DNA of 24,276 bases from a virus. The notes below the pieces were generated by a model, which was not told where the DNA came from, did not search any database, and was given only the letters and a program-made list of their open reading frames with translations. Shown here piece after piece: positions 1 through 24,276 of this stretch. The stretch is taken from IMG/VR virus record IMGVR_UViG_3300045988_119278. The stretch is one strand, 5' to 3'. A program made the position numbers and the translations under genes. Position 1 is the stretch's first letter. The number at the start of each line of letters is the position of its first letter.

Positions 1-119
1 CTCAAAGGAGAAAGCAAAATAAGTTATGGTATTGTCATCATTTATTTGTTTAAAATAATACATATAACAACCTCCTTACTCTACCCAAAAGGCATAGATA
101 TAATAATCTCTTGAACTTA
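1..119. repeat. Terminal overlap copy 1, identical to 24158-24276. Indicates a circular or circularly permuted genome with 24,157 bp unique length.
   Basis: Direct string comparison of the two window ends. The repeat lies inside coding sequence (3' end of CDS 76..507 and 5' end of the CDS annotated at 24065..24220). Confidence 0.95.
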
Positions 120-507
120 TAGAGATAGAAGAAGCATTACTCCACCCTATAGAAATTGTCTGTGTGGTTTTATCATAGTCAATGTAATAACTTATATCAG
201 TAATCTCTCCACCGGTCTGTATCCTTTCCACTATCCCTGTTGAAACATTGTATCTTGTAATAGCACCATTCATTACCATAACAAAAGTATAATTTGTTGG
301 AAGGTTTGTATTAGTTATTGTCTTAGTGCCATTCTTATTTTTTGGCATTGAAAAGCTTGTTGCCATTTGTATATACTTTAATTCCCCGCCACCTGCTTGA
401 ATACCCTAAATAGCAGTAGGTATAGCATCAAGGGTTAATAACTCTGTTCCGCCCGTCTTTTCTCTAATAGCTGAACCAATAGCAGAGAGTTTATCAGTAA
501 GTGCCAT
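76..507 (-). CDS. Structural, fibre-associated protein of unknown function, 143 aa, with 1 in-frame TAG (406-408)
   Basis: ATG at 505-507 overlaps the TGA stop of the upstream CDS. N-terminus is MALTDKLSAIGSAIREKTGGTELLTLDAIPTAI. Track ORF 76..366 is its C-terminal part in the same frame. TAA stop at 76-78. Confidence 0.6.
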
Positions 508-802
508 TCTCAATAACCCCCAATGCTTGATTGATTAATGTATTTACTTGGTCTGCGGTTTGGTAGCCTTTATTTTCAACTTCTGTCATAGTAGCATAAC
601 CACTCAAATCAGGCTTACCAGTTATATCATTCCAAGCAACCCCACCTACAGCAGAAGTATCTACCCATAATTTAATCTTATTATCAGTAGGAGCAACAGC
701 CCCTACTGATATTTCAGTTTTATCATTCACATAAGATTTAATTTGGGAAGACAACTTACTTAAACCGCTACCATTAATAATTTTATTATCAGTAGTTGCC
801 AT
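494..802 (-). CDS. Fibre-like protein carrying a G-Y-Q-T..QV..I motif, 102 aa
   Basis: Intact track ORF with RBS AAGAGGTG upstream of the ATG and a TGA stop. Motif NKGYQTADQVNTLI is shared with CDS 814..1386. Confidence 0.75.
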   Translation of the reverse strand: MATTDNKIINGSGLSKLSSQIKSYVNDKTEISVGAVAPTDNKIKLWVDTSAVGGVAWNDITGKPDLSGYATMTEVENKGYQTADQVNTLINQALGVIENGTY

Positions 803-813
803 AAGCGCACCTC

Positions 814-1386
814 TTAAACTGCGTCAGTCCAAATTTGATTAATTTCCGCATTGGTTAAGAAGTCAAGGCTAACAGAAGTATCTCCTATTACTTCCCACTT
901 GCTATTGATATAAGCATACTCAGTGTAAATATTACCCTCAGTGCCTTGCTCTTTCAATTTAAGATAAATCACATTGGAAGAACCAGTAGCAGGAAGATTC
1001 TCAACAATCTCAAACTTAAATCCACCAACACCACCAATAGCAGAAGCAATAGCGTCCTGAACCTGCTTAGAGGTCTAATAGCCCTTTCCCTCAACTGCGG
1101 TCATTGTAGTATAGCCCTTATCAGTAATTGCGGTTTCTACCTGAGCGCTTGTTTGATATCCTTTACCTGAAATGGCGGTATCTACGTCATTGGCGGTTTG
1201 ATATCCAGCACCATTTGTAAGTTGATTGTTATTAGTAGGAATAGTTGGAGTATTAGCAATGAGAGAATAATCTAACTTACTATCCGCACTAATCTTATCT
1301 TGCTTACTTGCTAAACCCTCTTTGACCTTTTGAGTATAAACTACTAATTGGTCGCCCTTTAATACTTTGTTATCATAACTTGCCAT
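814..1386 (-). CDS. Fibre-like repeat protein, 190 aa, with 1 in-frame TAG (1075-1077)
   Basis: Track ORF 1075..1386 ends at TAG. The same frame stays open to TAA at 814-816. Repeats are GAGYQTANDVDTAI, GKGYQTSAQVETAI, DKGYTT and GKGY[TAG]TSKQVQDAI. C-terminus is ...NVIYLKLKEQGTEGNIYTEYAYINSKWEVIG. Confidence 0.8.
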
Positions 1387-1401
1387 ATTTAAATGTCCTC
1401 C

Positions 1402-1662
1402 TTAATATGTTTGCCAAATGGCTAATATATCTGAGTTAGTGAGACTATCTAAGCCCACAACCTCACTTGAAATTTCTGCTTTCAATTCTTCTTTATCTTT
1501 TGGAGTGTAGTAATCAACACCCTTAACAGGGGTATCACCCTTATCTCCCTTATCCCCCTTATCACCTTTACCGCCTTTATCACCTTTATAGTAATCAACA
1601 CCTAAGTTTAAATTACCATTCAAAGATTCTTCAACAGAGAGAACACCTTTTATTTCAATCAT
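1402..1662 (-). CDS. Collagen-like (G-X-Y) repeat protein, 86 aa; fibre or capsid-decoration candidate
   Basis: Contains GDKGGKGDKGDKGDKGDTP. RBS AGGAGG is present, the ATG overlaps the upstream TGA (ATGA), and the stop is TAA. Confidence 0.8.
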   Translation of the reverse strand: MIEIKGVLSVEESLNGNLNLGVDYYKGDKGGKGDKGDKGDKGDTPVKGVDYYTPKDKEELKAEISSEVVGLDSLTNSDILAIWQTY

Positions 1663-1988
1663 TGTGTTACCTCCTATCCAATTTCAAAAGTGGCAAAGGG
1701 AACAACGGTATAAATCTTACCTCCAAAAGTGGTAAGTTGAATATCATAGCAATATGTTCCAATAGCAAGAGATTTAGTATCATCAGGTAAGAAGTCAATC
1801 ACACCTTTGCTTGCGGTTTTGGCAAAAGCAATCTGACTGTCTGCGGTCTTTCTTACTGTTAGCGTGATTGTATCATCATCAAATAACTATCTCTCTTTGC
1901 CTGTATTGTCATATACCTTAACTTTAAGTGAAGCATTATCGCCCTTAGTTAAGTATATCTTATTTGTTTTCTCATTGATTTTAAACAA
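1659..1988 (-). CDS. Small beta-rich (Ig-like?) structural protein, 109 aa, with 2 in-frame TAG (1887-1889, 1674-1676)
   Basis: RBS AAGGAGG plus a 9-nt spacer and a TTG start. The frame is open apart from TAG and ends in TGA overlapping the next ATG. It is not in the track because TAG splits it into pieces under 60 aa. Confidence 0.6.
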
Positions 1989-2002
1989 GGCTTTCAACCT
2001 CC

Positions 2003-2794
2003 TTATTCTATAATTGCCAAAATAGCACAGCGGTCATTAGCGTGAAATGGTGGAATAGTCTCGCCTACAACCGCTTCCTCAATCAAGAAAATCTTACCAT
2101 TCATCTATTTACATCTATCACAAGTTCTATCATCCTTAGCAGATAAAACCTGATACTTTTTGATTCCAGCTTGCTTGTATTTATCTAATGTGGCCTAATT
2201 CTGAACATAACTTAGCTCAGTTCTTGCCAAGCGGTCAGCCTGTCTATATCCAACATTAAAATCATTCATTAGCTACATAACCAACTAATCTTTGCTTGCC
2301 CCTCTGCTGATACAATCAATCAAACCTTTTTCCAAGCCAACCTGTAATTTTGCTTTGTTCTGCCATATTCTTGTGCTCCAGTTCTTACCATCCGCACACC
2401 AAACCGCATTAATAACTTCTTTTGCTTGCTTTTGGTTAAACTCACCTGAGAACCCCAATGATTGACCTACAGCCACGCTTGTTTTCTAATACATATCCAA
2501 CAACTTTTTATCTGTTATCTTTATTTCCTTTTGGCCTAATGCTTTCAACTGCTTATTCAAAGACTTAACCAAAGAGAAATATCTATTATATTTGTATAAA
2601 TCGCTTGCTAAAAGAGTGCCGTTATAACTACTTGCTATAATCTCATCATACAGGGCTATAATATCCTTTTTAACCTGCTCCATAGAGTAAACATATTGCT
2701 TACTTAACTCTTGCTGATACTCTAAAAGGGTCTTATCATAAAGCAGTTCTTTTTGTCTGGTTTCTCTTTTCAGCCAATACTTACTGCTGTTCAT
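2003..2794 (-). CDS. Head morphogenesis protein, SPP1 gp7 / Mu F-like, 263 aa, with 5 in-frame TAG (2486, 2285, 2273, 2195, 2105)
   Basis: Track ORFs 2486..2794 and 2285..2476 are in one frame. Read-through gives ...ARTELSYVQN.ATLDKYKQAGIKKYQVLSAKDDRTCDRCK.MNGKIF...PPFHANDRC, the MuF-type C-terminal motif. TAA stop at 2003-2005. Confidence 0.85.
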
Positions 2795-4103
2795 TTACTG
2801 TTTCCTCTTGGTTATTTTGGAAAGAATACATATCAATATTTGCTTGCTTCTGCTCTTCCAACTGCTCTAATTCCTTTTGAACATCACCAACAAAAGGAAG
2901 CTGTGCTAACAAGGTAGCATCACTTACCAAACCTCTTAATTGATTAACCATTTGAGCAATTTCCAAAGTATTAACGGGTAAGTTTCTTGTAAACACAATG
3001 TCAATATCTCTCCACATTGAATCCCCGCCCTTGATATTGATAACCTCACAGATTAACTCAATGCGTTTCTGTAATGCCTTAGTCATATTGGCAACTATGT
3101 TAGAAGAAACATTTTCAAAGCCAGTCAATTTATATCTCATACTAATACCAGAAGCAGACATAAACTTATCATCATTAAAATCAGGTGAATTAGCAATCTT
3201 ATGTATAGTATCATTAATGTTTTTGAGCATATTTTCAATCTGTGTGTCTGATACGCTCTTTGTTAAATAGCTGGCTTCTGCGTCTGCGTCCATAATAAGC
3301 ACTCTGTTTTGCTTCATTGCTTGTAAATCATCCGCATCAGCTTGAACGCCCTTTAAGATTAAGTAAGCATCGCAGAAAGATTCAAAATCATCTACCTCAC
3401 TTGATAAGAGTTTGTTGTATGCGTCCTGTAGGCTCATAACCTTATCAAAAATGCTTTCTCTCTCTTGGTTCAAGGGGAACACAGTAATAGGAACTTGTTT
3501 GAAATAGTTAGGTCTTTCTTCCAAGAGTGAAAGAACAGCAAAGCCAACTGAACTTTCATAAATTAGAGTGCGGTCTTTGCTATAAACTTCAATATAATAT
3601 TTCTCTTGTGCTTCATTGATATTATCAGCAACATAATATCTAATTACATAAAGCAACTCACTATTCAAGTCATTAGCATAGATAGGAATTACTTCTCTTG
3701 GGTCTAATACCTTGAATCTTTGTTTCCCTAATTCATCAATATAGTTAATCTCATAAGAACAACCATAAATCAATGCTTGTCTAAGATAATCATTATCCTC
3801 TGTCCGCACGTCATTATAGTTAAGAACATTTTGAATCTCTACAAAGTCTTTCTCTGACTGATAGGCAATATCAATACCCGTTAGATAGCCTAAGTAATTC
3901 TGAACTATGTTATAGCAATAGTTAGTTACAATGCGGTTACAGGGCTTTCCAACATCAGTAGAAGACTTATAAATGATATCCTGTTTGCCTTTGTAATATT
4001 TGTAATACTTGTTTAATATAGGTTTATCCTGAATCTCAAATTGCTAAATACACTTACTTATGTATTCAGTTGTCAATGGTGCTTTTTTATCTATGATAAA
4101 CAA
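2781..4103 (-). CDS. Portal protein (SPP1 gp6-like), 440 aa, with 1 in-frame TAG (4044-4046)
   Basis: Track ORF 2781..3809 continues upstream in frame to a TTG at 4101-4103 preceded by GGAGG. The N-terminus ...KPILNKYYKYYKGKQDIIYKSSTDVGKPCNRIVTNYCYNIVQNYLGYLTGIDIAY is portal-like. Stop is TAA. Confidence 0.9.
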
Positions 4104-4123
4104 ACTATTACCTCCTTTTTTGT

Positions 4124-5359
4124 TTATAAACCTAAAACCGCTTTATCCAAGGTTTTAAGTCCTGATTTAGTATATATATCTGAGTAAGCATATCTTAACC
4201 CATCAATACCGTGCGAAAACTCGTGCGTGTATTTGTCCTCTTGGTATTCTCCTTGTTTATCCTTTTGATATGAGAAATTGGATAGCTCAGTTATCAGGTT
4301 TTGGCATTTGGAACTAACTATAATGGTATGGTTTTGTAAAAAGGATAAACCTGCTTTAACCGAATCCTTACCTTTGATACAAGGAGCAACATAAAAGCCC
4401 TATTTTTTGAAATAGTCAATGCTTCTTGGTTCTGCGGAATCCATATAAATCTTAGTCTTTGCTAACTCCATTGTGCGGATTGCCTGACTTACAGTATCTA
4501 ACTGCTAACCCCTCTTGTAATACTCATTGAGAACATAGATTGTCTTATTTTGCTTGTCATACAATGTATCAATTATTGTTGTTGGGTCAATAAAGCCCAA
4601 GTCCGCGCCCGCTCTTCTTTCTAATCCAAGAGAGAGAAGATTTTCCGTATCTAAAATAGTTTCCTGCCAATTATGAAATACTAACCCCTCATCCGGCACG
4701 CCCCACTCACCAAAACAATAAACTCTGGCTTTATTTGGGTTTCTTGTTATAAGCTCTTCTAATGAATTTACATACTCCTAAGATAGAAAAGGATTATCCT
4801 TGTATGTTGTCTCACTAAAATAAAAACTTTTGGGCGGATTTACAACACAAAAGTCATAGAGCCAATGCGCTTTGCTTATGGGGTTAAAGGCCATTAGTAT
4901 TTGCTGATTTGGCACGGTGGAGCGCATACGCAAGTTCAACTGCTCCACAATATCCTTGCTTACCTCAAATACTTCCTCAATAAAGATTGTGCCTATATCA
5001 TTGAGAGATAGCAATTTAGTCTCTTCATCCAACCCCATAAAGATAATTTCAGAACCATTTGGGAACTTAATATTAAAGTCCGTTTCTCTGATTTTTACAT
5101 AGGGCAGAATCTACCACTTTGTTAGAATCTCTTTGAATAGGGAGAAACAGGTATTTCTTATTGTTGAGCCATATTTACGGCAAACTAAGATTTTGATTTT
5201 CTCAGAACAAGCCCTAATTATCAATTTCTAAGTGATAAAATAGGACTTGCCTGAACCTGCTGAACCTTTATAGACTTCCCACCTATGAGAGTAGTCCAAA
5301 AGCAAAGGAAATAATGTTTTTGAAAATGCGGACTTGTCTATATTTAAGGTTATTGACAT
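4124..5359 (-). CDS. terL: Terminase large subunit (PBSX/Terminase_6-like), 411 aa, with 5 in-frame TAG (5228, 5111, 4778, 4505, 4400)
   Basis: Walker A KGSAGSGKSYFIT[TAG]KLI. Track fragments 4778..5038 and 4505..4699 are in the same frame. The nuclease end is ...IYMDSAEPRSIDYFKK.GFYVAPCIKGKDSVKAGLSFLQ...HGIDGLRYA. TAA stop at 4124-4126. Confidence 0.93.
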
Positions 5360-5364
5360 TGTGC

Positions 5365-5556
5365 TTACTCTTTCTTATCTATCTTTTGATTCAATTTCTC
5401 AGCCTGAGTGCCAAAATAGAAAGCAGTAATAGTTGTGTAAATGGTAGTAAACTCCTATGGTATCTGCTTGCCCCAAATCAATAAAACGCAGAATACAATA
5501 GTAAGCAATAAGGTAACAATGCTTTTAACTGTAATCAATCTTTTTAATTCAGCCAT
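5365..5556 (-). CDS. Small two-TM membrane protein, 63 aa, with 1 in-frame TAG (5455-5457)
   Basis: GGAG RBS and ATG at 5554-5556. Sequence is MAELKRLITVKSIVTLLLTIVFCVLLIWGKQIP.EFTTIYTTITAFYFGTQAEK..., ending in TAA. It sits between terS and terL. Confidence 0.6.
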
Positions 5557-6376: not shown

Positions 6377-6841
6377 TTAATTAAGTGCGGTTTTTGTGTT
6401 TTGCCCGCCCTTGTTATACTGTTTTACGTGCTCTATCACCATTTCCGCACTTGCTTTCTTGGCTATTGGATTCACTGTATAATGTATTCCGTCCTCTTTT
6501 GGTATTTGGTAATTCATTATAGGCACATACTTTCTAATCCATTTACCTTCAACAATTAGCAAGTTCTTTTTATTGGGGACATACTCTAACACCTCAAAAC
6601 AAAGGGTATAACCCTGTTGGATTATACCCCTAAATACATCATATTTATGTTCTGGTAAGTTTAGTTTTGTATTAACCTAATGCGCTAAGATTCTTTTTAA
6701 TAAATTACTTGCTTTACCAATATAAATGATAACACCATCTATCTTAATACAATAAATACCCGCTTTATCTAAGTGCGGTTTTTGGTTTTTGATTTCCTCA
6801 TATTGCTATATCATTGTTTTGTAATATATATTATCTTTCAT
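6377..6841 (-). CDS. GIY-YIG nuclease (homing-endonuclease-like), 154 aa, with 2 in-frame TAG (6806-6808, 6677-6679)
   Basis: RBS AAAGGAG and ATG at 6839-6841. Sequence is ...KAGIYCIKIDGVIIYIGKASNLLKRILAH[TAG]VN...LLIVEGKWIRKY. Track ORF 6377..6592 is the C-terminal part in the same frame. Stop is TAA. Confidence 0.8.
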
Positions 6842-7918: not shown

Positions 7919-8068
7919 TTATTTCTCCTTATTATTAAATTGAGCCATATACCATTTAACCGCTTCTCTAATTAATTGTGATACTGGTATATCTTTTTCT
8001 TTAGCCATTCCCTCAATAGCTTCTTTTAATTCTTCATCAAATCTAACTGTTGCTCTATAATCTTTCAT
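7919..8068 (-). CDS. Ribbon-helix-helix (CopG/Arc-like) protein, 49 aa
   Basis: Sequence MKDYRATVRFDEELKEAIEGMAKEKDIPVSQLIREAVKWYMAQF. The ATG overlaps the upstream TGA and the stop is TAA. Confidence 0.75.
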   Translation of the reverse strand: MKDYRATVRFDEELKEAIEGMAKEKDIPVSQLIREAVKWYMAQFNNKEK

Positions 8069-8713: not shown

Positions 8714-8992
8714 TCAGCAAGTCTTTAAGCGCTCATAGGCAAGGGCAACCGCATAATACTTATCATAAATGTCAGTCTTAGGATTCCTATCTGCTACATC
8801 ACTCATAATAGTATCCTCAAAAACGCACAAAACCACATCTTGATAATCTCCTTCATCAAAGCGTTCCTCAACATAGTTACTATCAAGGCGTTCAAAAACG
8901 CAATCATTTAACAACTCTTCAACTTCTTCTCTCTTGGACGTTTTATCAATAATTTCCTCAACATTCATCTTATATAAGTCATTAACTAACAT
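8714..8992 (-). CDS. Highly acidic 92-aa protein, first gene downstream of the leftward switch promoter
   Basis: Intact track ORF with RBS AAAGGAG and a TGA stop. About 24 of 92 residues are D/E. No in-frame TAG. Confidence 0.7.
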   Translation of the reverse strand: MLVNDLYKMNVEEIIDKTSKREEVEELLNDCVFERLDSNYVEERFDEGDYQDVVLCVFEDTIMSDVADRNPKTDIYDKYYAVALAYERLKTC

Positions 8993-9351: not shown

Positions 9352-9540
9352 ATGAGAATTAGCCTTGATTTGGAAACCAATGAAATTATTGTCCCCAAGA
9401 ACTTCTTTAAGGAGATTGAAAAAAGGAACGAAATGATTGTTAAAATGGGCGGTGAAGCCATTAAACCCATTGACCTTATTAAAAAGTCCTTTGAAGTGGC
9501 TATGAGTAATACGGACAAGAACTTACACGTGCGCGCTTAA
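9352..9540 (+). CDS. Hypothetical 62-aa protein, first rightward gene
   Basis: Track ORF with a promoter upstream, a weak RBS (AAGAGAG) and a TAA stop. The antisense ORF 9309..9518 is hydrophobic, low-complexity and lacks an RBS. Confidence 0.55.
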   Translation: MRISLDLETNEIIVPKNFFKEIEKRNEMIVKMGGEAIKPIDLIKKSFEVAMSNTDKNLHVRA

Positions 9541-9541
9541 T

Positions 9542-9724
9542 ATGGGAGCAAAGGGGACTAAAGTAACCAGTAGAGAGAAAAAGCGTATGTGGGAACTCTA
9601 CCAGTTGGGTTTAACTTTCTCTGCTATTGGTAAGAAAATGCGTCGTTCACCTGATACAATTAGCAGATACGTCCACGAGTATGAAGCCAGCCTAAATGTA
9701 GCCAACCTATTAACGCAAAAATAA
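9542..9724 (+). CDS. Small HTH DNA-binding protein, 60 aa; regulator or excisionase-like candidate
   Basis: Sequence SREKKRMWELYQLGLTFSAIGKKMRRSPDTISRYV has an HTH pattern. The gene starts 2 nt after the previous stop, ends in TAA, and is convergent with the integrase. Confidence 0.7.
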   Translation: MGAKGTKVTSREKKRMWELYQLGLTFSAIGKKMRRSPDTISRYVHEYEASLNVANLLTQK

Positions 9725-9752
9725 AAAGAAGGGGTTTATGCCCCTTCTTTTT
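9724..9752. terminator. Bidirectional hairpin terminator between convergent genes
   Basis: AAAAAGAAGGGG-TTTATG-CCCCTTCTTTTT, with A-run and T-run flanks. The integrase stop codon lies in the loop. Confidence 0.7.
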
Positions 9753-10662
9753 TCATCTTCTCTGTTAGATTGTCTAATGGATTAAATTGAATCTGTAAGT
9801 CATTGCCATAGAGATTGACATAGTGCCTACTCATATCAATGGTGCTATGTCCCAACCAGCCTTGAAGCTGAACCATACCCCCGCCCGCCATTACAAACTT
9901 TTTGGCAAAGGTGTGTCTAAATAAGTGAGCGGAAGTCTTAGAAACCCCTCTTGAAATGTTGTAGGTTGTCAGGGCATTTTGAAAACCCCTCTTATTAAGC
10001 ATTGCGCCCTCACAGGATGGAAACAAAGGGCTATCAGGTGTCCAGTCCCACGTGTCTAAATACTCTCTCAAAACGGCTTCTAAAGCCTTGGAAAGGGGGA
10101 TTAATTGTTGCTTGCGGTTTTTCATCATTCTCAGAAAGATAAAGCCCTTTTCAAAGTCAATGTCCTTTACCCTCAGATTAATCACCGTGCCTACTCTATT
10201 TCCAGTAGCAATGAGGTAATTGACCGCACACCACATACGCCATTCCGTCCACCTATTGGAATCAGGCTTTTTAAGCAATCTGGCAAGTTCCGCATCAGTA
10301 TAAGGCTCTTTCTCTTCCGCATCCTCTTTCATCAGGGTAATTTCAAGGGGTTTCATATACTCCCTTTCAACCATAAACCTGAAAAACACTCTAAGCCCTC
10401 TAATTCTTGTATTTAAGGAAGTGGTTTTCTTACCCGCATCAATAAGAGACACAAGCCAATCCTCATAAACCTGTTGCGTGACCTCATCCACATATTTAAA
10501 TGTTCCAGCAGTAGAGAAGAAGTATTCAATATCTTCCTCATAGTATCTTAGGGTTTCTTCTCTCAGATTCTTCAATTTACAATGCTTGATGAACTCTGAT
10601 TCAGCTTCTACAATTCCTATGCGCTTTTGGGTCTTTGCGTTTTTGATGGTAGTCATTCTCAT
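9736..10662 (-). CDS. int: Tyrosine recombinase / phage integrase, 308 aa, with no in-frame TAG
   Basis: Intact track ORF. The C-terminal catalytic region is ...AHLFRHTFAKKFVMAGGGMVQLQGWLGHSTIDMSRHYVNLY (R..H-x-x-R..H..Y). GGAGG RBS and TAA stop. Confidence 0.93.
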   Translation of the reverse strand: MRMTTIKNAKTQKRIGIVEAESEFIKHCKLKNLREETLRYYEEDIEYFFSTAGTFKYVDEVTQQVYEDWLVSLIDAGKKTTSLNTRIRGLRVFFRFMVEREYMKPLEITLMKEDAEEKEPYTDAELARLLKKPDSNRWTEWRMWCAVNYLIATGNRVGTVINLRVKDIDFEKGFIFLRMMKNRKQQLIPLSKALEAVLREYLDTWDWTPDSPLFPSCEGAMLNKRGFQNALTTYNISRGVSKTSAHLFRHTFAKKFVMAGGGMVQLQGWLGHSTIDMSRHYVNLYGNDLQIQFNPLDNLTEKMKKEGA

Positions 10663-10721
10663 AGATTATTTTCCTCCATAAAATCCAGTTCTCTACCACC
10701 CCAAGGAATCTAATGTAAAAG

Positions 10722-10750
10722 AAAAAAACTCAAGGGAAAAACCCTTGAGT
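10722..10750 (-). terminator. Rho-independent terminator immediately 3' of the tRNA-like segment
   Basis: Perfect 9-bp stem ACTCAAGGG/CCCTTGAGT with a 5-nt loop, followed on the minus strand by T7. Confidence 0.7.
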
Positions 10751-10759
10751 TTCAACACT

Positions 10760-10815
10760 TTGGTGCGCGAGGCGGGACTTGAACCCGCACGTCCGTAATG
10801 AACACTAGAACCTGA
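10760..10815 (-). other. Probable attP core: 3' portion of a type-II tRNA-Leu(CAG)-like gene, from anticodon loop to CCA; not a complete tRNA
   Basis: Minus strand reads TTCAGGT-TCTAG-TGTTCATTACGGACGT-GCGGGTTCAAGTCCCGC-CTCGCGC-A-CCA. It has a T-arm, a variable arm and the 3' acceptor strand. No 5' acceptor strand (GCGCGAG) or matching 5' anticodon stem lies upstream. It is about 100 bp from the integrase. Confidence 0.7.
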
Positions 10816-10952
10816 ATCCCCGTCTGCCTTACTACTTCTGAGAACTCAAGTTTTTCTTACACCAGCTATTCCCCAAGGTGATTAGCTCTAACTTCTCATT
10901 AGAACTATCCAATGGACGTGTCTATTATACCACAGATTCTATTTTTGTCAAC

Positions 10953-10991: not shown

Positions 10992-11255
10992 TTATCCCTC
11001 TAACTCAGCTAATTCAGCTTGAAGTTTAGCAATCATTTCTTTCTTTTTCTCAATGGTTTTGAGTTTCTTCTTATCCTTACTCTGTTCCGCAATAACCGCT
11101 TTAACTTCATCCTTCTCTAAGAACTCTTTAACAAGGTTGCCAATCACACTAGTGGGGGTAGCACCTTCAACGCCTTTACAATAAATGCTGAGGGCTTCAA
11201 AATCCTTAACCGCAATCTTAATCTCAGGGCGCTTTGTTCTTGTTGTGTTAGCCAT
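10992..11255 (-). CDS. 87-aa protein with an RHH-like N-terminus and charged coiled-coil tail, in an autonomous cassette next to attP
   Basis: Intact track ORF with GGAGG RBS, its own promoter (11288-11316) and terminator. Sequence includes KRPEIKIAVKDFEALSIYCKGVEGATPTSVIGNLVKEFL. No in-frame TAG. Confidence 0.75.
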   Translation of the reverse strand: MANTTRTKRPEIKIAVKDFEALSIYCKGVEGATPTSVIGNLVKEFLEKDEVKAVIAEQSKDKKKLKTIEKKKEMIAKLQAELAELEG

Positions 11256-11330: not shown

Positions 11331-11531
11331 TTATTCCTTAATTTCCTCTTGGATAATAGCAACTTGTTTTTCTAACTGATAAGTGCGTTCTATCAGATTA
11401 TTATGCTTATTAACCTTTTCCTCTAATTCTTTTAATCTATACTCAATCAAAGCAGTAGATTTTCTATTTGCTATCCAAGAACCGCCCAAAGCGCCAATCA
11501 TTCCTAAGATAGCAACAATAATAGCCTACAT
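11331..11531 (-). CDS. Single-pass membrane protein with a coiled coil, 66 aa; lysis-protein (holin/XhlA-like) candidate. TAG is codon 2.
   Basis: AAGGAGG, 7 nt, then ATG TAG GCT... Sequence is M.AIIVAILGMIGALGGSWIANRKSTALIEYRLKELEEKVNKHNNLIERTYQLEKQVAIIQEEIKE. Stop is TAA. It is the last gene of the tail operon. Confidence 0.6.
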
Positions 11532-20808: not shown

Positions 20809-21612
20809 TTAAGCCTGTGCTTCTTTAATGGAGCAAATCTTAGTAGCATCAGCAAGGGCTACAAGGTAAGTAGCACGCATATAAACGCTATTCTTTCTGG
20901 TATCAGGATTGCGGTCAGGCTCAACCTCAACATCTTTCTTGATGAAGAGTTTGACGGCTTCTTTGGTCATAACAAAGGCAGAATCAGTAAGAGCCTTAGT
21001 AGCAATAACGGGAATACCGCAAATAGTGCCAACCTATCCGTTGTAAATAACCTGTCCCATCATAGCACTCTTATAGTCTTCATCCTTGCGGAGAGATGCT
21101 TTCCAAGTGTTAGGAATGAGAATGAATAACTGGCTTTCGTCTTCAAGGTTGAGAGTGCTAATAGCATCAACAATGGTATCATAGTTAAGAGCGCCACCCT
21201 TAGCAAAAGTAACACCCAAAGTAACATCAGTGCTCTTAACAGCACTAATAAAGTCAGCGGTCATCTTGTTAGTCATTACCTGAACTGCGCCTCTCATCAT
21301 ACCATCAACAATAAAGGGGTCTTTCATTGCTTCCTCATCGGTATAATCATAAGCCTGTTGGCAGAGCTTTACACGGTAATCTTTACCAGTATAAGAGATA
21401 GAACCACGCTTAGAAGCGGTATTACCAACGCCATTAGCAAGTTCCTCAGCTTCACCCTTATAGGTGTAAGTATTAACAGTTTTAAGCATACCCGCGCTTT
21501 CTGCTAACTCATTATCAATAGTCATAAGAGAACGGGTATTAAGAGAGGTGGTAAGCAAGTCTTTTGCTACGCTCTCGACGATTTTATTATCAAATACAAC
21601 ATTAGTTGCCAT
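20809..21612 (-). CDS. Major capsid protein, 267 aa, with 1 in-frame TAG (21034-21036)
   Basis: AAGGAG RBS and ATG at 21610-21612 (MATNVVFDNK..). Track ORF 21034..21633 continues in frame through ..QVIYNG.VGTICGIPVIATKALTDSAFVMTKEAVKLFIKKDVEVEPDRNPDTRKNSVYMRATY.. to TAA at 20809. Confidence 0.9.
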
Positions 21613-21634: not shown

Positions 21635-22132
21635 TTAATTCACTAATTCAAAATGAAGTCCCTTTAAGGTTTTCTATCTTCCATTAATCATATGACTTAC
21701 AGCACTATAATCAACTCCAAGAGCCAAAGAAGCATCTCTGCCAGATTTATAAACAACTCCTGTTTCTACACATCTTATAGGTTTGCTTATCTTTTGAGAT
21801 GCCTTTTCATTCCGTGTGCCATAATTTATGTTATAACTGCGGGAACACCATTCTAAATTGTTTTCTTTATTATTATCTTTGTTTTCATCCTTATGGTTTA
21901 CACAAGGATAATTGTTTGGGTTTGGTATAAAATGAAGCGCAACCAATCTACTAACCTATTCTCTTTTTACTTTGCCATTAATAGCATACAAGCAAACAGT
22001 GTGATAGCCTTTTTGGTTTTTATGATGCTTCAAATATATTTGTCTTTTCTTGCTCCAAACCCTACCCATATTACTAATCTAATAGTTTGGGTATCCTTTA
22101 ATATCCATCCAGATTTCATTGTTCTCCAACAT
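21635..22132 (-). CDS. HNH homing endonuclease with a NUMOD4-like N-terminus, 165 aa, with 3 in-frame TAG (22081-22083, 21953-21955, 21674-21676)
   Basis: Sequence is MLENNEIWMDIKGYPNY[TAG]ISNMGRVWS...VSRLVALHFIPNPNNYPCVNHKDENKDNNKENNLEW...HMINGR[TAG]KTLKGLHFELVN. GGAGG RBS and TAA stop. It is inserted between the scaffold and capsid genes. Confidence 0.88.
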
Positions 22133-22872: not shown

Positions 22873-23061
22873 TTAGTCTGCTATTGGAACTTCAATGTAG
22901 TTATCAATACTATCATTAGAGCCAATGAATAAGGTTCTAACATAGAGGTGTTCTTGCTCTTCTTCCCCTTTTTCATTGGTGTGGCTTTTTGGTTCTCTCC
23001 AATCAAAAACTTTTCCTTTATCACTATCATATCTGATTAAATCAAAACTTTTTGCTTTCAT
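22873..23061 (-). CDS. Hypothetical 62-aa protein
   Basis: Intact track ORF with AAGGAG RBS and a TAA stop, followed by a terminator. Confidence 0.6.
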   Translation of the reverse strand: MKAKSFDLIRYDSDKGKVFDWREPKSHTNEKGEEEQEHLYVRTLFIGSNDSIDNYIEVPIAD

Positions 23062-23073
23062 ATAACATTCTCC

Positions 23074-24084
23074 TTATACAAATGATACAGTCCATCCTTT
23101 TGCGGTTGCTACTGCTATTTCTTCCTCAGTCATAGTGTTAATAGCTCCACCGTCAGTTTTAGCTCCTTGAGCGCCTTCAAATTTAATTGTATTAGTTCCT
23201 CCTGCTGTAGCTAAATAGGCACTTGTGTCAGGTAGTGAGTTAATAGTTTCTACAGCTGAAATGCGATTATAACGGGAATAATTTATATCCGAAGTCCAAC
23301 TATCAGGGTCATCTTTTAAAGCCTAATATGTAGCATCGTCTTTAATTTGCTTTGTTGATGAAAAACCATACTTGTCGGCATAAGAACCATAACCAACGGT
23401 TTTAGTTAAATCTATTATTTGGCTTTTCCACTCTACTACCTAATTAGGGTCAAAAGTTAAGCGCTTTAAACGCTAACACAGGTCAAAAGTAGAAACAAAC
23501 GCATTATAAGTCATTTTACCACTCATTATTGGAGCACCTAACCCAATGATTTCATCTAAAACATAACAAAAACGGAATCCATTAAAGTATATTAAATTAC
23601 GCTTACTACTATTTTCTAATTTAGTTAATTCTAATACTTCTGTAGGGATTTTTCTTAAATATTTAGCACTATAAAAGCAATTATCTAATCCAACTTGTTT
23701 AAATGAACCTGCTGGCGGTAATACAAAAACATTGTCTAAAGTCTAAATTTTTGAATTTTCAATAATATTATTCATACTTAAAGAGTAGTTATTTCCGACT
23801 GAATTTAAGTTTATTTTAAAGGGGATAGAAGTTAATTTTGAATTATAAAACATATAATTACAATAGCGGACTCTTTTTAATTGTATTTTATCTTTATACT
23901 TTGTTATAAACCAATCCCAAATACCATTATAATTAAAATAAGAAAAATTAAAATCAGTATAACCAGTGGTATTTCCAAAAGTCAATTCCTATTGAGTAGG
24001 AGCGGGCATATCACTTATTTCGTAGGCAACATTCTTACTTGCCACTTTCCATTCATTACCATCTTTATATTTCAGCACTGGCAT
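23074..24084 (-). CDS. BspA/DUF285-type leucine-rich-repeat protein (adhesin or receptor-binding candidate), 336 aa, with 5 in-frame TAG (23989, 23743, 23473, 23440, 23323)
   Basis: AAGGAGG RBS and ATG at 24082-24084. LRR-like units are ..RVRYCNYMFYNSKLTSIPFKINL.., ..NCFYSAKYLRKIP.. and ..TFDLC.RLKRLTF.. The C-terminus is ..MTEEEIAVATAKGWTVSFV. TAA stop at 23074. Confidence 0.75.
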
Positions 24085-24220
24085 TTGCTTCATCCTCCTT
24101 AATAGCAAGTATGTATTCTTCTTTTGTCATAGGATACATATTACCACTCACTTTTGGCTCAAAGGAGAAAGCAAAATAAGTTATGGTATTGTCATCATTT
24201 ATTTGTTTAAAATAATACAT
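24065..24220 (-). CDS. Hypothetical 51-aa protein. Its 5' end lies in the terminal overlap and is also seen at 1..63.
   Basis: GGAGG RBS and ATG at 24218-24220 (equivalent to 61-63). Sequence is MYYFKQINDDNTITYFAFSFEPKVSGNMYPMTKEEYILAIKEDEANASAEI. Stop is TAA. Confidence 0.5.
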   Translation of the reverse strand: MYYFKQINDDNTITYFAFSFEPKVSGNMYPMTKEEYILAIKEDEANASAEI

Positions 24221-24276
24221 ATAACAACCTCCTTACTCTACCCAAAAGGCATAGATATAATAATCTCTTGAACTTA
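24158..24276. repeat. Terminal overlap copy 2, identical to 1-119
   Basis: Direct string comparison. Confidence 0.95.

Follow-up and report, generated by a model that had tools for sequence, protein, structure and literature searches.

The window analysed here, a stretch of viral DNA of 24,276 nucleotides, carries on its minus strand a gene whose product contains four tandem repeat units and whose reading frame holds a single TAG (the GYQT-repeat gene, Table 1). In this protein the long units follow the consensus G-x-G-Y-Q-T-x-x-x-V-x-x-A-I, and the TAG lies at the Q position of the last unit. A preliminary description of the locus had taken this as a built-in clue that TAG is decoded as Gln. 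The placement of the TAG at the Q position of long units holds, but the short third unit, with Thr at that position, had been left out; since this unit has Thr after Gly-Tyr, we limit the argument to the 14-residue unit type. The adjacent paralog is related to the GYQT-repeat protein with a BLASTP E value of 2e-10, and its CAA aligns exactly to the TAG.

Table 1. Coordinates of the genes, repeat units and sites of the window
Feature	Coordinates	Strand	Details
GYQT-repeat protein gene	814..1386	-	190 aa; ATG 1386-1384, GGAGG Shine-Dalgarno upstream, TAA stop
In-frame TAG, codon 104	1075..1077	-	plus-strand CTA; Q position of repeat unit 4
Repeat unit 1, G59-I72, GAGYQTANDVDTAI	1171..1212	-	Q63 = CAA, 1198-1200
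Repeat unit 2, G74-I87, GKGYQTSAQVETAI	1126..1167	-	Q78 = CAA, 1153-1155
Short repeat unit 3, D89-E99, DKGYTTMTAVE	1090..1122	-	T at the queried position; kept in relatives
Repeat unit 4, G100-I113, GKGY[TAG]TSKQVQDAI	1048..1089	-	TAG after GY
Paralog, 102 aa	494..802	-	TAG-free; one short unit (SGYATMTEVE) and one long unit (NKGYQTADQVNTLI); Q81 = CAA, 560-562
Portal ORF	2781..4142	-	TTG at 4103 gives 440 aa, starting just after terL
Large terminase (terL)	4124..5359	-	5 TAGs; Pfam Terminase_3, E = 3e-47
Holin-like gene, 63 aa	5365..5556	-	two predicted membrane helices; TAG 5455-5457
Tyrosine integrase	9736..10662	-	TAG-free; Pfam Phage_integrase precomputed for identical product
attP region	10663..10827 (about)	-	3' part of tRNA-Leu(CAG), anticodon loop to CCA end
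Holin-like gene, 66 aa	11331..11531	-	one membrane helix and a coiled coil; TAG = codon 2, 11526-11528
Major capsid protein	20809..21612	-	one TAG, 21034-21036
HNH/NUMOD4 homing endonuclease	21635..22132	-	3 TAGs; Pfam NUMOD4

In order to see which codons occupy the repeat position, we collected long GY?T units, orthologous as well as paralogous, from 86 related loci. Among the 25 units that are distinct at the DNA level the codon is CAA in 19, CAG in two and TAG in four, and no other codon occurs. This restriction to Gln or TAG far exceeds chance, the residue making up about 4% of these proteins. The counterpart in relatives of the codon at 1075-1077 is either TAG or CAA, and in one relative the identical peptide context, GKGYQTSKQVQDAI, is coded with CAA. 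A protein-collection search with 814..1386 returned 947 homologs, and in the best 60 of these Q is found at every long unit. The number of repeats differs among relatives, whose proteins are 149, 164, 175 or 190 aa long. By comparison of the units, the TAG of the GYQT-repeat protein is an ordinary Gln codon, the long unit always having Gln there.

The gene belongs to PHROG 24103, a family of unknown function. We examined an AlphaFold2 model of a homolog 93% identical to the GYQT-repeat protein (P0001, pLDDT 73.7), in which an N-terminal helix is followed by the repeats, modelled as low-confidence short helices, by a confident beta domain (124-172) and by a terminal helix. The model has no match in the PDB at E <= 0.001. 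In BFVD, matches of the repeat protein are to head fibre, tail fibre and decoration proteins of uncultured phages (E = 3e-7 to 1e-5, TM about 0.25). The name "fibre protein" used in the preliminary description thus finds slight backing in these annotated fibres, at a TM of about 0.25, and none in the PDB or in the PHROG assignment. The gene lies in a block on the minus strand (76..2033 and 22873..24093), between the Mu F-like and scaffold genes, which also encodes a collagen-like GDK-repeat protein, the paralog, and unknown proteins of 143, 62 and 339 aa. The GYQT-repeat protein and its collagen-like neighbour (1402..1662) have a C-terminal LD.LTN..I..IW motif in common. A head fibre or decoration role for the GYQT-repeat protein would fit its gene position and this shared motif.

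Genome organization and distribution of TAG

Bases 1-119 of the window are identical to bases 24158-24276. This overlap of 119 nt marks the window as a single complete genome, circular or terminally redundant, with a unit of 24,157 bp. In the contig of one relative terL is split over the two ends, which likewise points to a circular map, and many relatives are contigs of 22.5-24.2 kb. A megablast search of the window against GenBank phages gave no match.

When TAG is taken as a sense codon, 34 co-oriented minus-strand genes tile the genome. The gene order begins with the small and large terminases, the portal and a Mu F-like minor head protein, followed by six small genes including those for the repeat protein and the collagen-like protein, and then by the scaffold, the HNH/NUMOD4 endonuclease and the major capsid protein. 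Connectors, tail tube, chaperones, tape-measure protein, a Dit-like protein and a 1072-aa tail protein with Big_3 and glycine-rich domains come next, and after them two holin-like genes, the integrase and small ribbon-helix-helix genes, and finally a replication-initiator-like gene and a GIY-YIG endonuclease. The two holin-like genes are putative holins, judged from sequence, and neither Pfam nor PHROGs revealed an endolysin anywhere in the genome. Within the first 235 codons of the portal ORF there is no ATG, and public gene calls shorten it to 218 aa. As to the two endonuclease genes, that for HNH/NUMOD4 stands between the scaffold and capsid genes, and that for GIY-YIG (6377..6841, minus strand) upstream of terS.

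The 34 gene models contain 62 in-frame TAGs, in agreement with the "~63" TAG columns estimated in the preliminary description, and neither TAA nor TGA occurs in frame. The models themselves end in TAA (22) or TGA (12), never in TAG. In the 29 larger genes TAG makes up about 22% of Gln codons (58/266). Nearly all genes for structure, packaging and putative lysis contain it, with nine TAGs in the tape-measure gene and five each in terL, the Mu F-like protein and the tail protein. Pfam domains run across the TAGs in terL, in the Mu F-like protein and in the HNH protein.

The same TAGs might be real stops, in which case the window would be a decaying prophage with pseudogenes. Gene callers working with the standard code do fragment these genes, as in the 106-kb contig L072, and no decoder is encoded, both of which this explanation would accommodate. 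We nevertheless give it practically no credence. Genes are interrupted 62 times by TAG and never by TAA or TGA, TAG stands at identical positions in many independent samples, and the sequence downstream of the TAGs is conserved at the protein level. Further, free circularly permuted contigs of 23.7-24.2 kb exist. An integrase identical to that of the window is indexed in 137 blocks of the collection and, in the places that we read, belongs to free contigs of this size and to integrated copies. Finally, for a prophage of the Topaz group, discussed below, read depth gave evidence of active replication (Borges et al.).

Amino acid assigned to TAG

In order to determine which amino acid is assigned to TAG, we gathered relatives of the phage from IMG/VR scans with TerL and the capsid protein, and from ENA contig look-ups. 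They form two groups. Members of the recoded group have in-frame TAGs and a terL 70-99% identical to that of the window; two of them, L018 and L062, are borderline exceptions classed by their low TAG counts. Members of the standard-code group have no in-frame TAG or one, and their terL is mostly 63-68% identical. First-stop usage did not discriminate between the groups, TAG standing at 14/227 gene ends in the standard-code group vs 9/220 in the recoded one.

Homologs in protein databases cannot be taken at face value in this analysis. In one near-identical hit (P0021) there is a Q for which the DNA itself (L001, 10001-10459) reads TAG, and in a large protein collection the recoded contigs are already translated with Q for TAG. 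Since this collection is pre-translated in such a way, a Q in the database may be circular; we therefore rejected database homologs as evidence on TAG and made all counts on DNA codons.

A total of 43 TAG sites of the window could be aligned to standard-code relatives. The commonest residue at these sites is Gln, at 16% (site-weighted) against a background of 3.8%. As a more formal measure we used a decoding model in which substitutions were estimated empirically from the sense codons of the window itself, aligned to the same relatives. With the standard-code relatives, the log-likelihood of the 43 sites is -123.1 for Gln and -132.6 for Lys. When the sites were bootstrapped 2000 times, Gln came first in 1969 replicates (98.5%). 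With the non-TAG codons of the recoded relatives (55 sites), the values are -151.6 and -201.3, and Gln wins all 2000 bootstraps. In control decodings of true Q, K, E, T, Y, L, S and W sites, each residue was called correctly in 300 of 300 trials. The preliminary description had proposed this scoring of TAG columns against standard-code homologs, and had named as contrary outcomes an enrichment of Trp, Tyr, Leu or Ser, or no enrichment at all; what we found was Gln in first place and enriched.

A tRNA that reads TAG could insert a residue other than Gln: Lys or pyrrolysine, or else Glu, Tyr, Trp, Leu or Ser by way of a suppressor derived from a one-base neighbour. Pyrrolysine systems exist in some Clostridia, Lys and Glu are the second and third commonest residues at the TAG columns, and there is no tRNA to show an anticodon or identity elements. 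The presence of Lys and Glu, however, is also usual at true Q columns, where P(K|Q) and P(E|Q) are both 0.11. Gln is preferred over Lys by 9.5 log-likelihood units with the standard-code relatives and by about 50 with the recoded ones, Lys takes only 3 of the 2000 bootstraps, and the repeat position admits only CAA, CAG and TAG. On these grounds, and on those of codon exchange given next, we regard a residue other than Gln as exceedingly improbable.

Codon exchange was followed in genes at least 90% identical to those of the window. Of 11 distinct changes at a TAG of the window, 6 are to CAG or CAA, and in the reverse direction a TAG of the relatives corresponds to CAG or CAA in the window in 9 of 16. 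Of 21 changes of CAG in these genes, 13 gave CAA and 6 gave TAG, while the other one-base neighbours became TAG almost never (AAG 0/38, GAG 0/44, TAT/TAC 1/42, TTG 0/25). TAG therefore exchanges with CAG and CAA as a synonymous codon would, which AAG, GAG and TTG never do. The overall Gln content is compatible with this, since it rises from 3.1% to 3.96% when TAG is counted as Gln, the value in standard-code relatives being 3.8%.

Individual columns show both the strength of the assignment and its exceptions. Gln is conserved at TAG columns of the capsid protein (21/23 standard-code relatives), gene 19787 (17/23) and gene 20209 (14/17). Across all columns, the frequency of Q among standard-code relatives is 16% at TAG columns vs 25% at true CAA/CAG columns. 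Several TAG sites stand opposite a conserved residue other than Q in these relatives, for example L in gene 19449, V/I in gene 20209 and C at terL residue 285; at the gene 19449 and gene 20209 sites, recoded relatives have CAA or CAG.

Two motifs of well-known protein families were also considered. The first is GYPNY[TAG]ISNMGRV in the HNH/NUMOD4 gene, with the TAG at 22079-22081. The preliminary description had stated that relatives often have Q or E at this position. This proved correct: nine cultured phages with the standard code supplied 13 HNH copies, of which six have Q in this column, three E, two A, one H and one R. The homing endonuclease I-HmuI (PDB 1U3E) can be aligned with 21635..22132 over residues 8-160 (E = 1.5e-19). 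Opposite the first and second TAGs it has Q (GYEGHY-Q-VSN and F-Q-VHRLVA), and opposite the third R; its sole use here is to test the decoding by a separate alignment. The second motif is SGKSYFIT[TAG]KLI in terL, where the TAG (5228-5230) follows the Walker A motif. All 24 standard-code relatives of the alignment have SYFIT-Q-K at this flank, coded with CAA or CAG (23/25 in the column tally), while the distant Sf6 gp2 has R at the TAG column. The expected Q is thus borne out at the TAG column, although the context is T-Q-K and not the A-Q-K given in the preliminary description.

Repeat position, likelihood decoding, codon exchange and Gln content thus agree on the reading first proposed for this DNA. 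We consider it very probable, on these comparative grounds, that TAG is a sense codon for glutamine in this phage (genetic code 15). The Gln identity of the TAG sites is supported here by comparative evidence; proof by mass spectrometry exists only for crAss-like phages, in which metaproteomics showed that TAG = Gln (Peters et al. 2022, PMC9523058).

Integration site and host

The TAG-free state of the integrase means that it can be expressed under the standard code of the host. Integrated relatives place the attachment site at a host tRNA gene. In six independent contigs (L072, L073, L080, L082, L083 and L084) the prophage directly follows the host genes for tRNA-Leu(GAG) and tRNA-Leu(CAG), and at the host-prophage junction of L080 the identity with the window begins 168 nt upstream of the integrase ATG. 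Two other relatives, L006 and L076, have tRNA-Thr(CGT) in their loci.

The host flanks of three of these contigs (L080 1-9900, L083 1-9900 and L082 1-7300) have a GC content of 54-56% vs 34% in the prophage, and this gap of 20 points between host and phage is unusually large. Genes in the host flanks include SpoVAC/SpoVAD, a SIR2 protein, a cation-efflux protein and glycosyltransferases; the presence of SpoVAC/SpoVAD indicates that the host forms spores. In the flanks of L080 and L083 there is no in-frame TAG, and in that of L082, where genes were called with TAG read-through, two genes contain one in-frame TAG each. Host genes in a small sample end mostly in TAA (9/12 in L083). Standard-code relatives of the phage were found in MAGs of Faecousia (Oscillospiraceae) and of other Clostridia. 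The window thus represents a tailed, temperate gut phage whose host is a spore-forming member of the Clostridia, and from the relatives in Faecousia MAGs this host probably belongs to the Oscillospiraceae.

Search for the decoder and comparison with known recoded phages

Given that genes contain up to nine TAGs, decoding must be efficient, and we searched the genome for the factor responsible. No suppressor tRNA was found in the window by ARAGORN with default or relaxed settings, by Rfam at E <= 10, or by a custom anticodon-loop scan, and no CUA anticodon was found by ARAGORN relaxed to -ps70 with introns allowed. The loci of 34 recoded relatives, mostly partial genomes, likewise gave no CUA tRNA. 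In Rfam searches at the gathering threshold and at E <= 10 there was no credible RNA, the only notable hit being the tRNA-like 3' end at attP. Two kinds of candidates were discarded. One was a "tRNA-SeC" call at 10761-10851, which consists of the 3' half of the attP tRNA-Leu joined to unrelated 5' sequence, with broken stems; the other was a pair of hits of the custom U-CUA-R loop scan, both inside coding regions and neither with a T-loop. No release factor or aminoacyl-tRNA synthetase was recognised by Pfam on the larger proteins, by PHROGs on ten of them, or by eye on the small ORFs. Ordinary tRNAs, tRNA-Ile(TAT) and tRNA-Ser(GGA), occur in some standard-code relatives (L010 3208-3283, L023 7738-7814, L033 5156-5247), apparently inside the phage, and none was seen in the recoded relatives scanned.

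With no phage suppressor tRNA found, TAG could be a leaky, context-dependent stop that is read at low efficiency by the host tRNA-Gln(CUG) as a near-cognate codon, with no true code switch. A near-cognate tRNA-Gln would also insert Gln, and the comparative evidence fits such a mechanism equally well. The number of TAGs per gene is what makes it very unlikely in our opinion: at 50% read-through per site, the nine TAGs of the tape-measure gene would leave 0.2% of full-length protein. In addition, TAG is used freely as a normal synonymous codon, at the share of Gln codons given above, which points to efficient decoding.

Efficient decoding of TAG as glutamine may depend on a suppressor tRNA of the host or of a co-resident or helper element, on a non-canonical RNA, or on a protein of the phage that targets RF1 or tRNA-Gln. 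We consider it less likely than not that the phage has TAG decoded as Gln in its standard-code host by some means that involves no suppressor tRNA of its own. One possibility would be that RF1 is disabled, or the host tRNA-Gln or GlnRS retuned, by a small phage protein whose gene lacks TAG, and candidates for such a code-switch protein are the products of 8714..8992, of 10992..11255 and of a plus-strand 62-aa helix-turn-helix gene (9506..9724). The ORF 7919..8068 and terS are TAG-free as well. Dependence on a suppressor encoded by the host or by a helper is another possibility. Were such a route true, the factor should be easy to find because the genome is so small. The situation is a common one among TAG-recoded genomes: the share reported to carry a suppressor tRNA is 40% in one study (Borges), 13% in the Dutch cohorts and 52% in a third study (Cook et al.). 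Some 48-87% of TAG-recoded phage genomes are thus without one, and the literature calls the mechanism not fully understood.

The closest description in the literature is that of the Topaz clade, whose genomes measure 22 +/- 3 kb and whose structural and lysis genes are recoded at TAG (Borges et al., bioRxiv 10.1101/2021.08.26.457843; Nat Microbiol 2022). The published example is a 23,706-bp prophage of Oscillospiraceae, matching a 24-kb circular form; the prophage boundary lies at a host tRNA, where the GC content jumps, and Topaz integrases avoid in-frame TAG (bioRxiv 10.1101/2021.08.26.457843). In a Dutch-cohort study, 18 viral OTUs were assigned to Topaz. The window phage resembles this group in its size of 24.2 kb, its recoded structural and lysis genes and its TAG-free integrase, in its integration next to a host tRNA with a GC jump at the boundary, in its standard-code Firmicutes host, and in the occurrence of standard-code and recoded relatives within one clade. 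It differs in that it integrates at tRNA-Leu(CAG), whereas the published example does so at tRNA-Thr. By description, the window phage matches the Topaz group feature by feature, its Oscillospiraceae host being a probable one, and it is a candidate member of the clade.

A more distant comparison is with crAss-like and Lak phages, in which Ivanova and colleagues are said to have reported genetic code 15 in 2014. The likeness lies in the use of TAG as Gln in late and structural genes by gut phages of standard-code hosts. The crAss-like and Lak phages, however, have genomes of about 100-600 kb and Bacteroidota hosts, whereas the window phage is temperate, has 24 kb and uses a Clostridia host. Many of them also encode a suppressor tRNA(CUA) and some an RF2, while in the window none was found.

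Borges et al. (bioRxiv 10.1101/2021.08.26.457843) proposed that recoding separates lysogeny from lytic growth. Extended to the present phage, their proposal would mean that the standard code of the host permits the expression of TAG-free lysogeny genes only, that late genes would be made only after the cell switches to reading TAG, and that recoding would in this manner separate lysogeny from lytic growth. The HNH/NUMOD4 and GIY-YIG genes hold in-frame TAGs, and so both would depend on the code switch.

TAG-recoded phages of this kind have been described before, and the phenomenon is already known; the repeat motif provides an internal control for the amino-acid assignment and adds no new principle. 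For annotation, translation with code 15 is needed, as otherwise nearly every structural gene is fragmented, and a public protein collection already uses TAG = Gln for near-identical contigs. How the code switch is made has already been flagged as unsolved in the literature, and a very small, complete and tRNA-less genome offers a compact case for this question. The phage is one more example of a prophage whose lysogeny genes are written in the code of the host and whose lytic genes are written in another.
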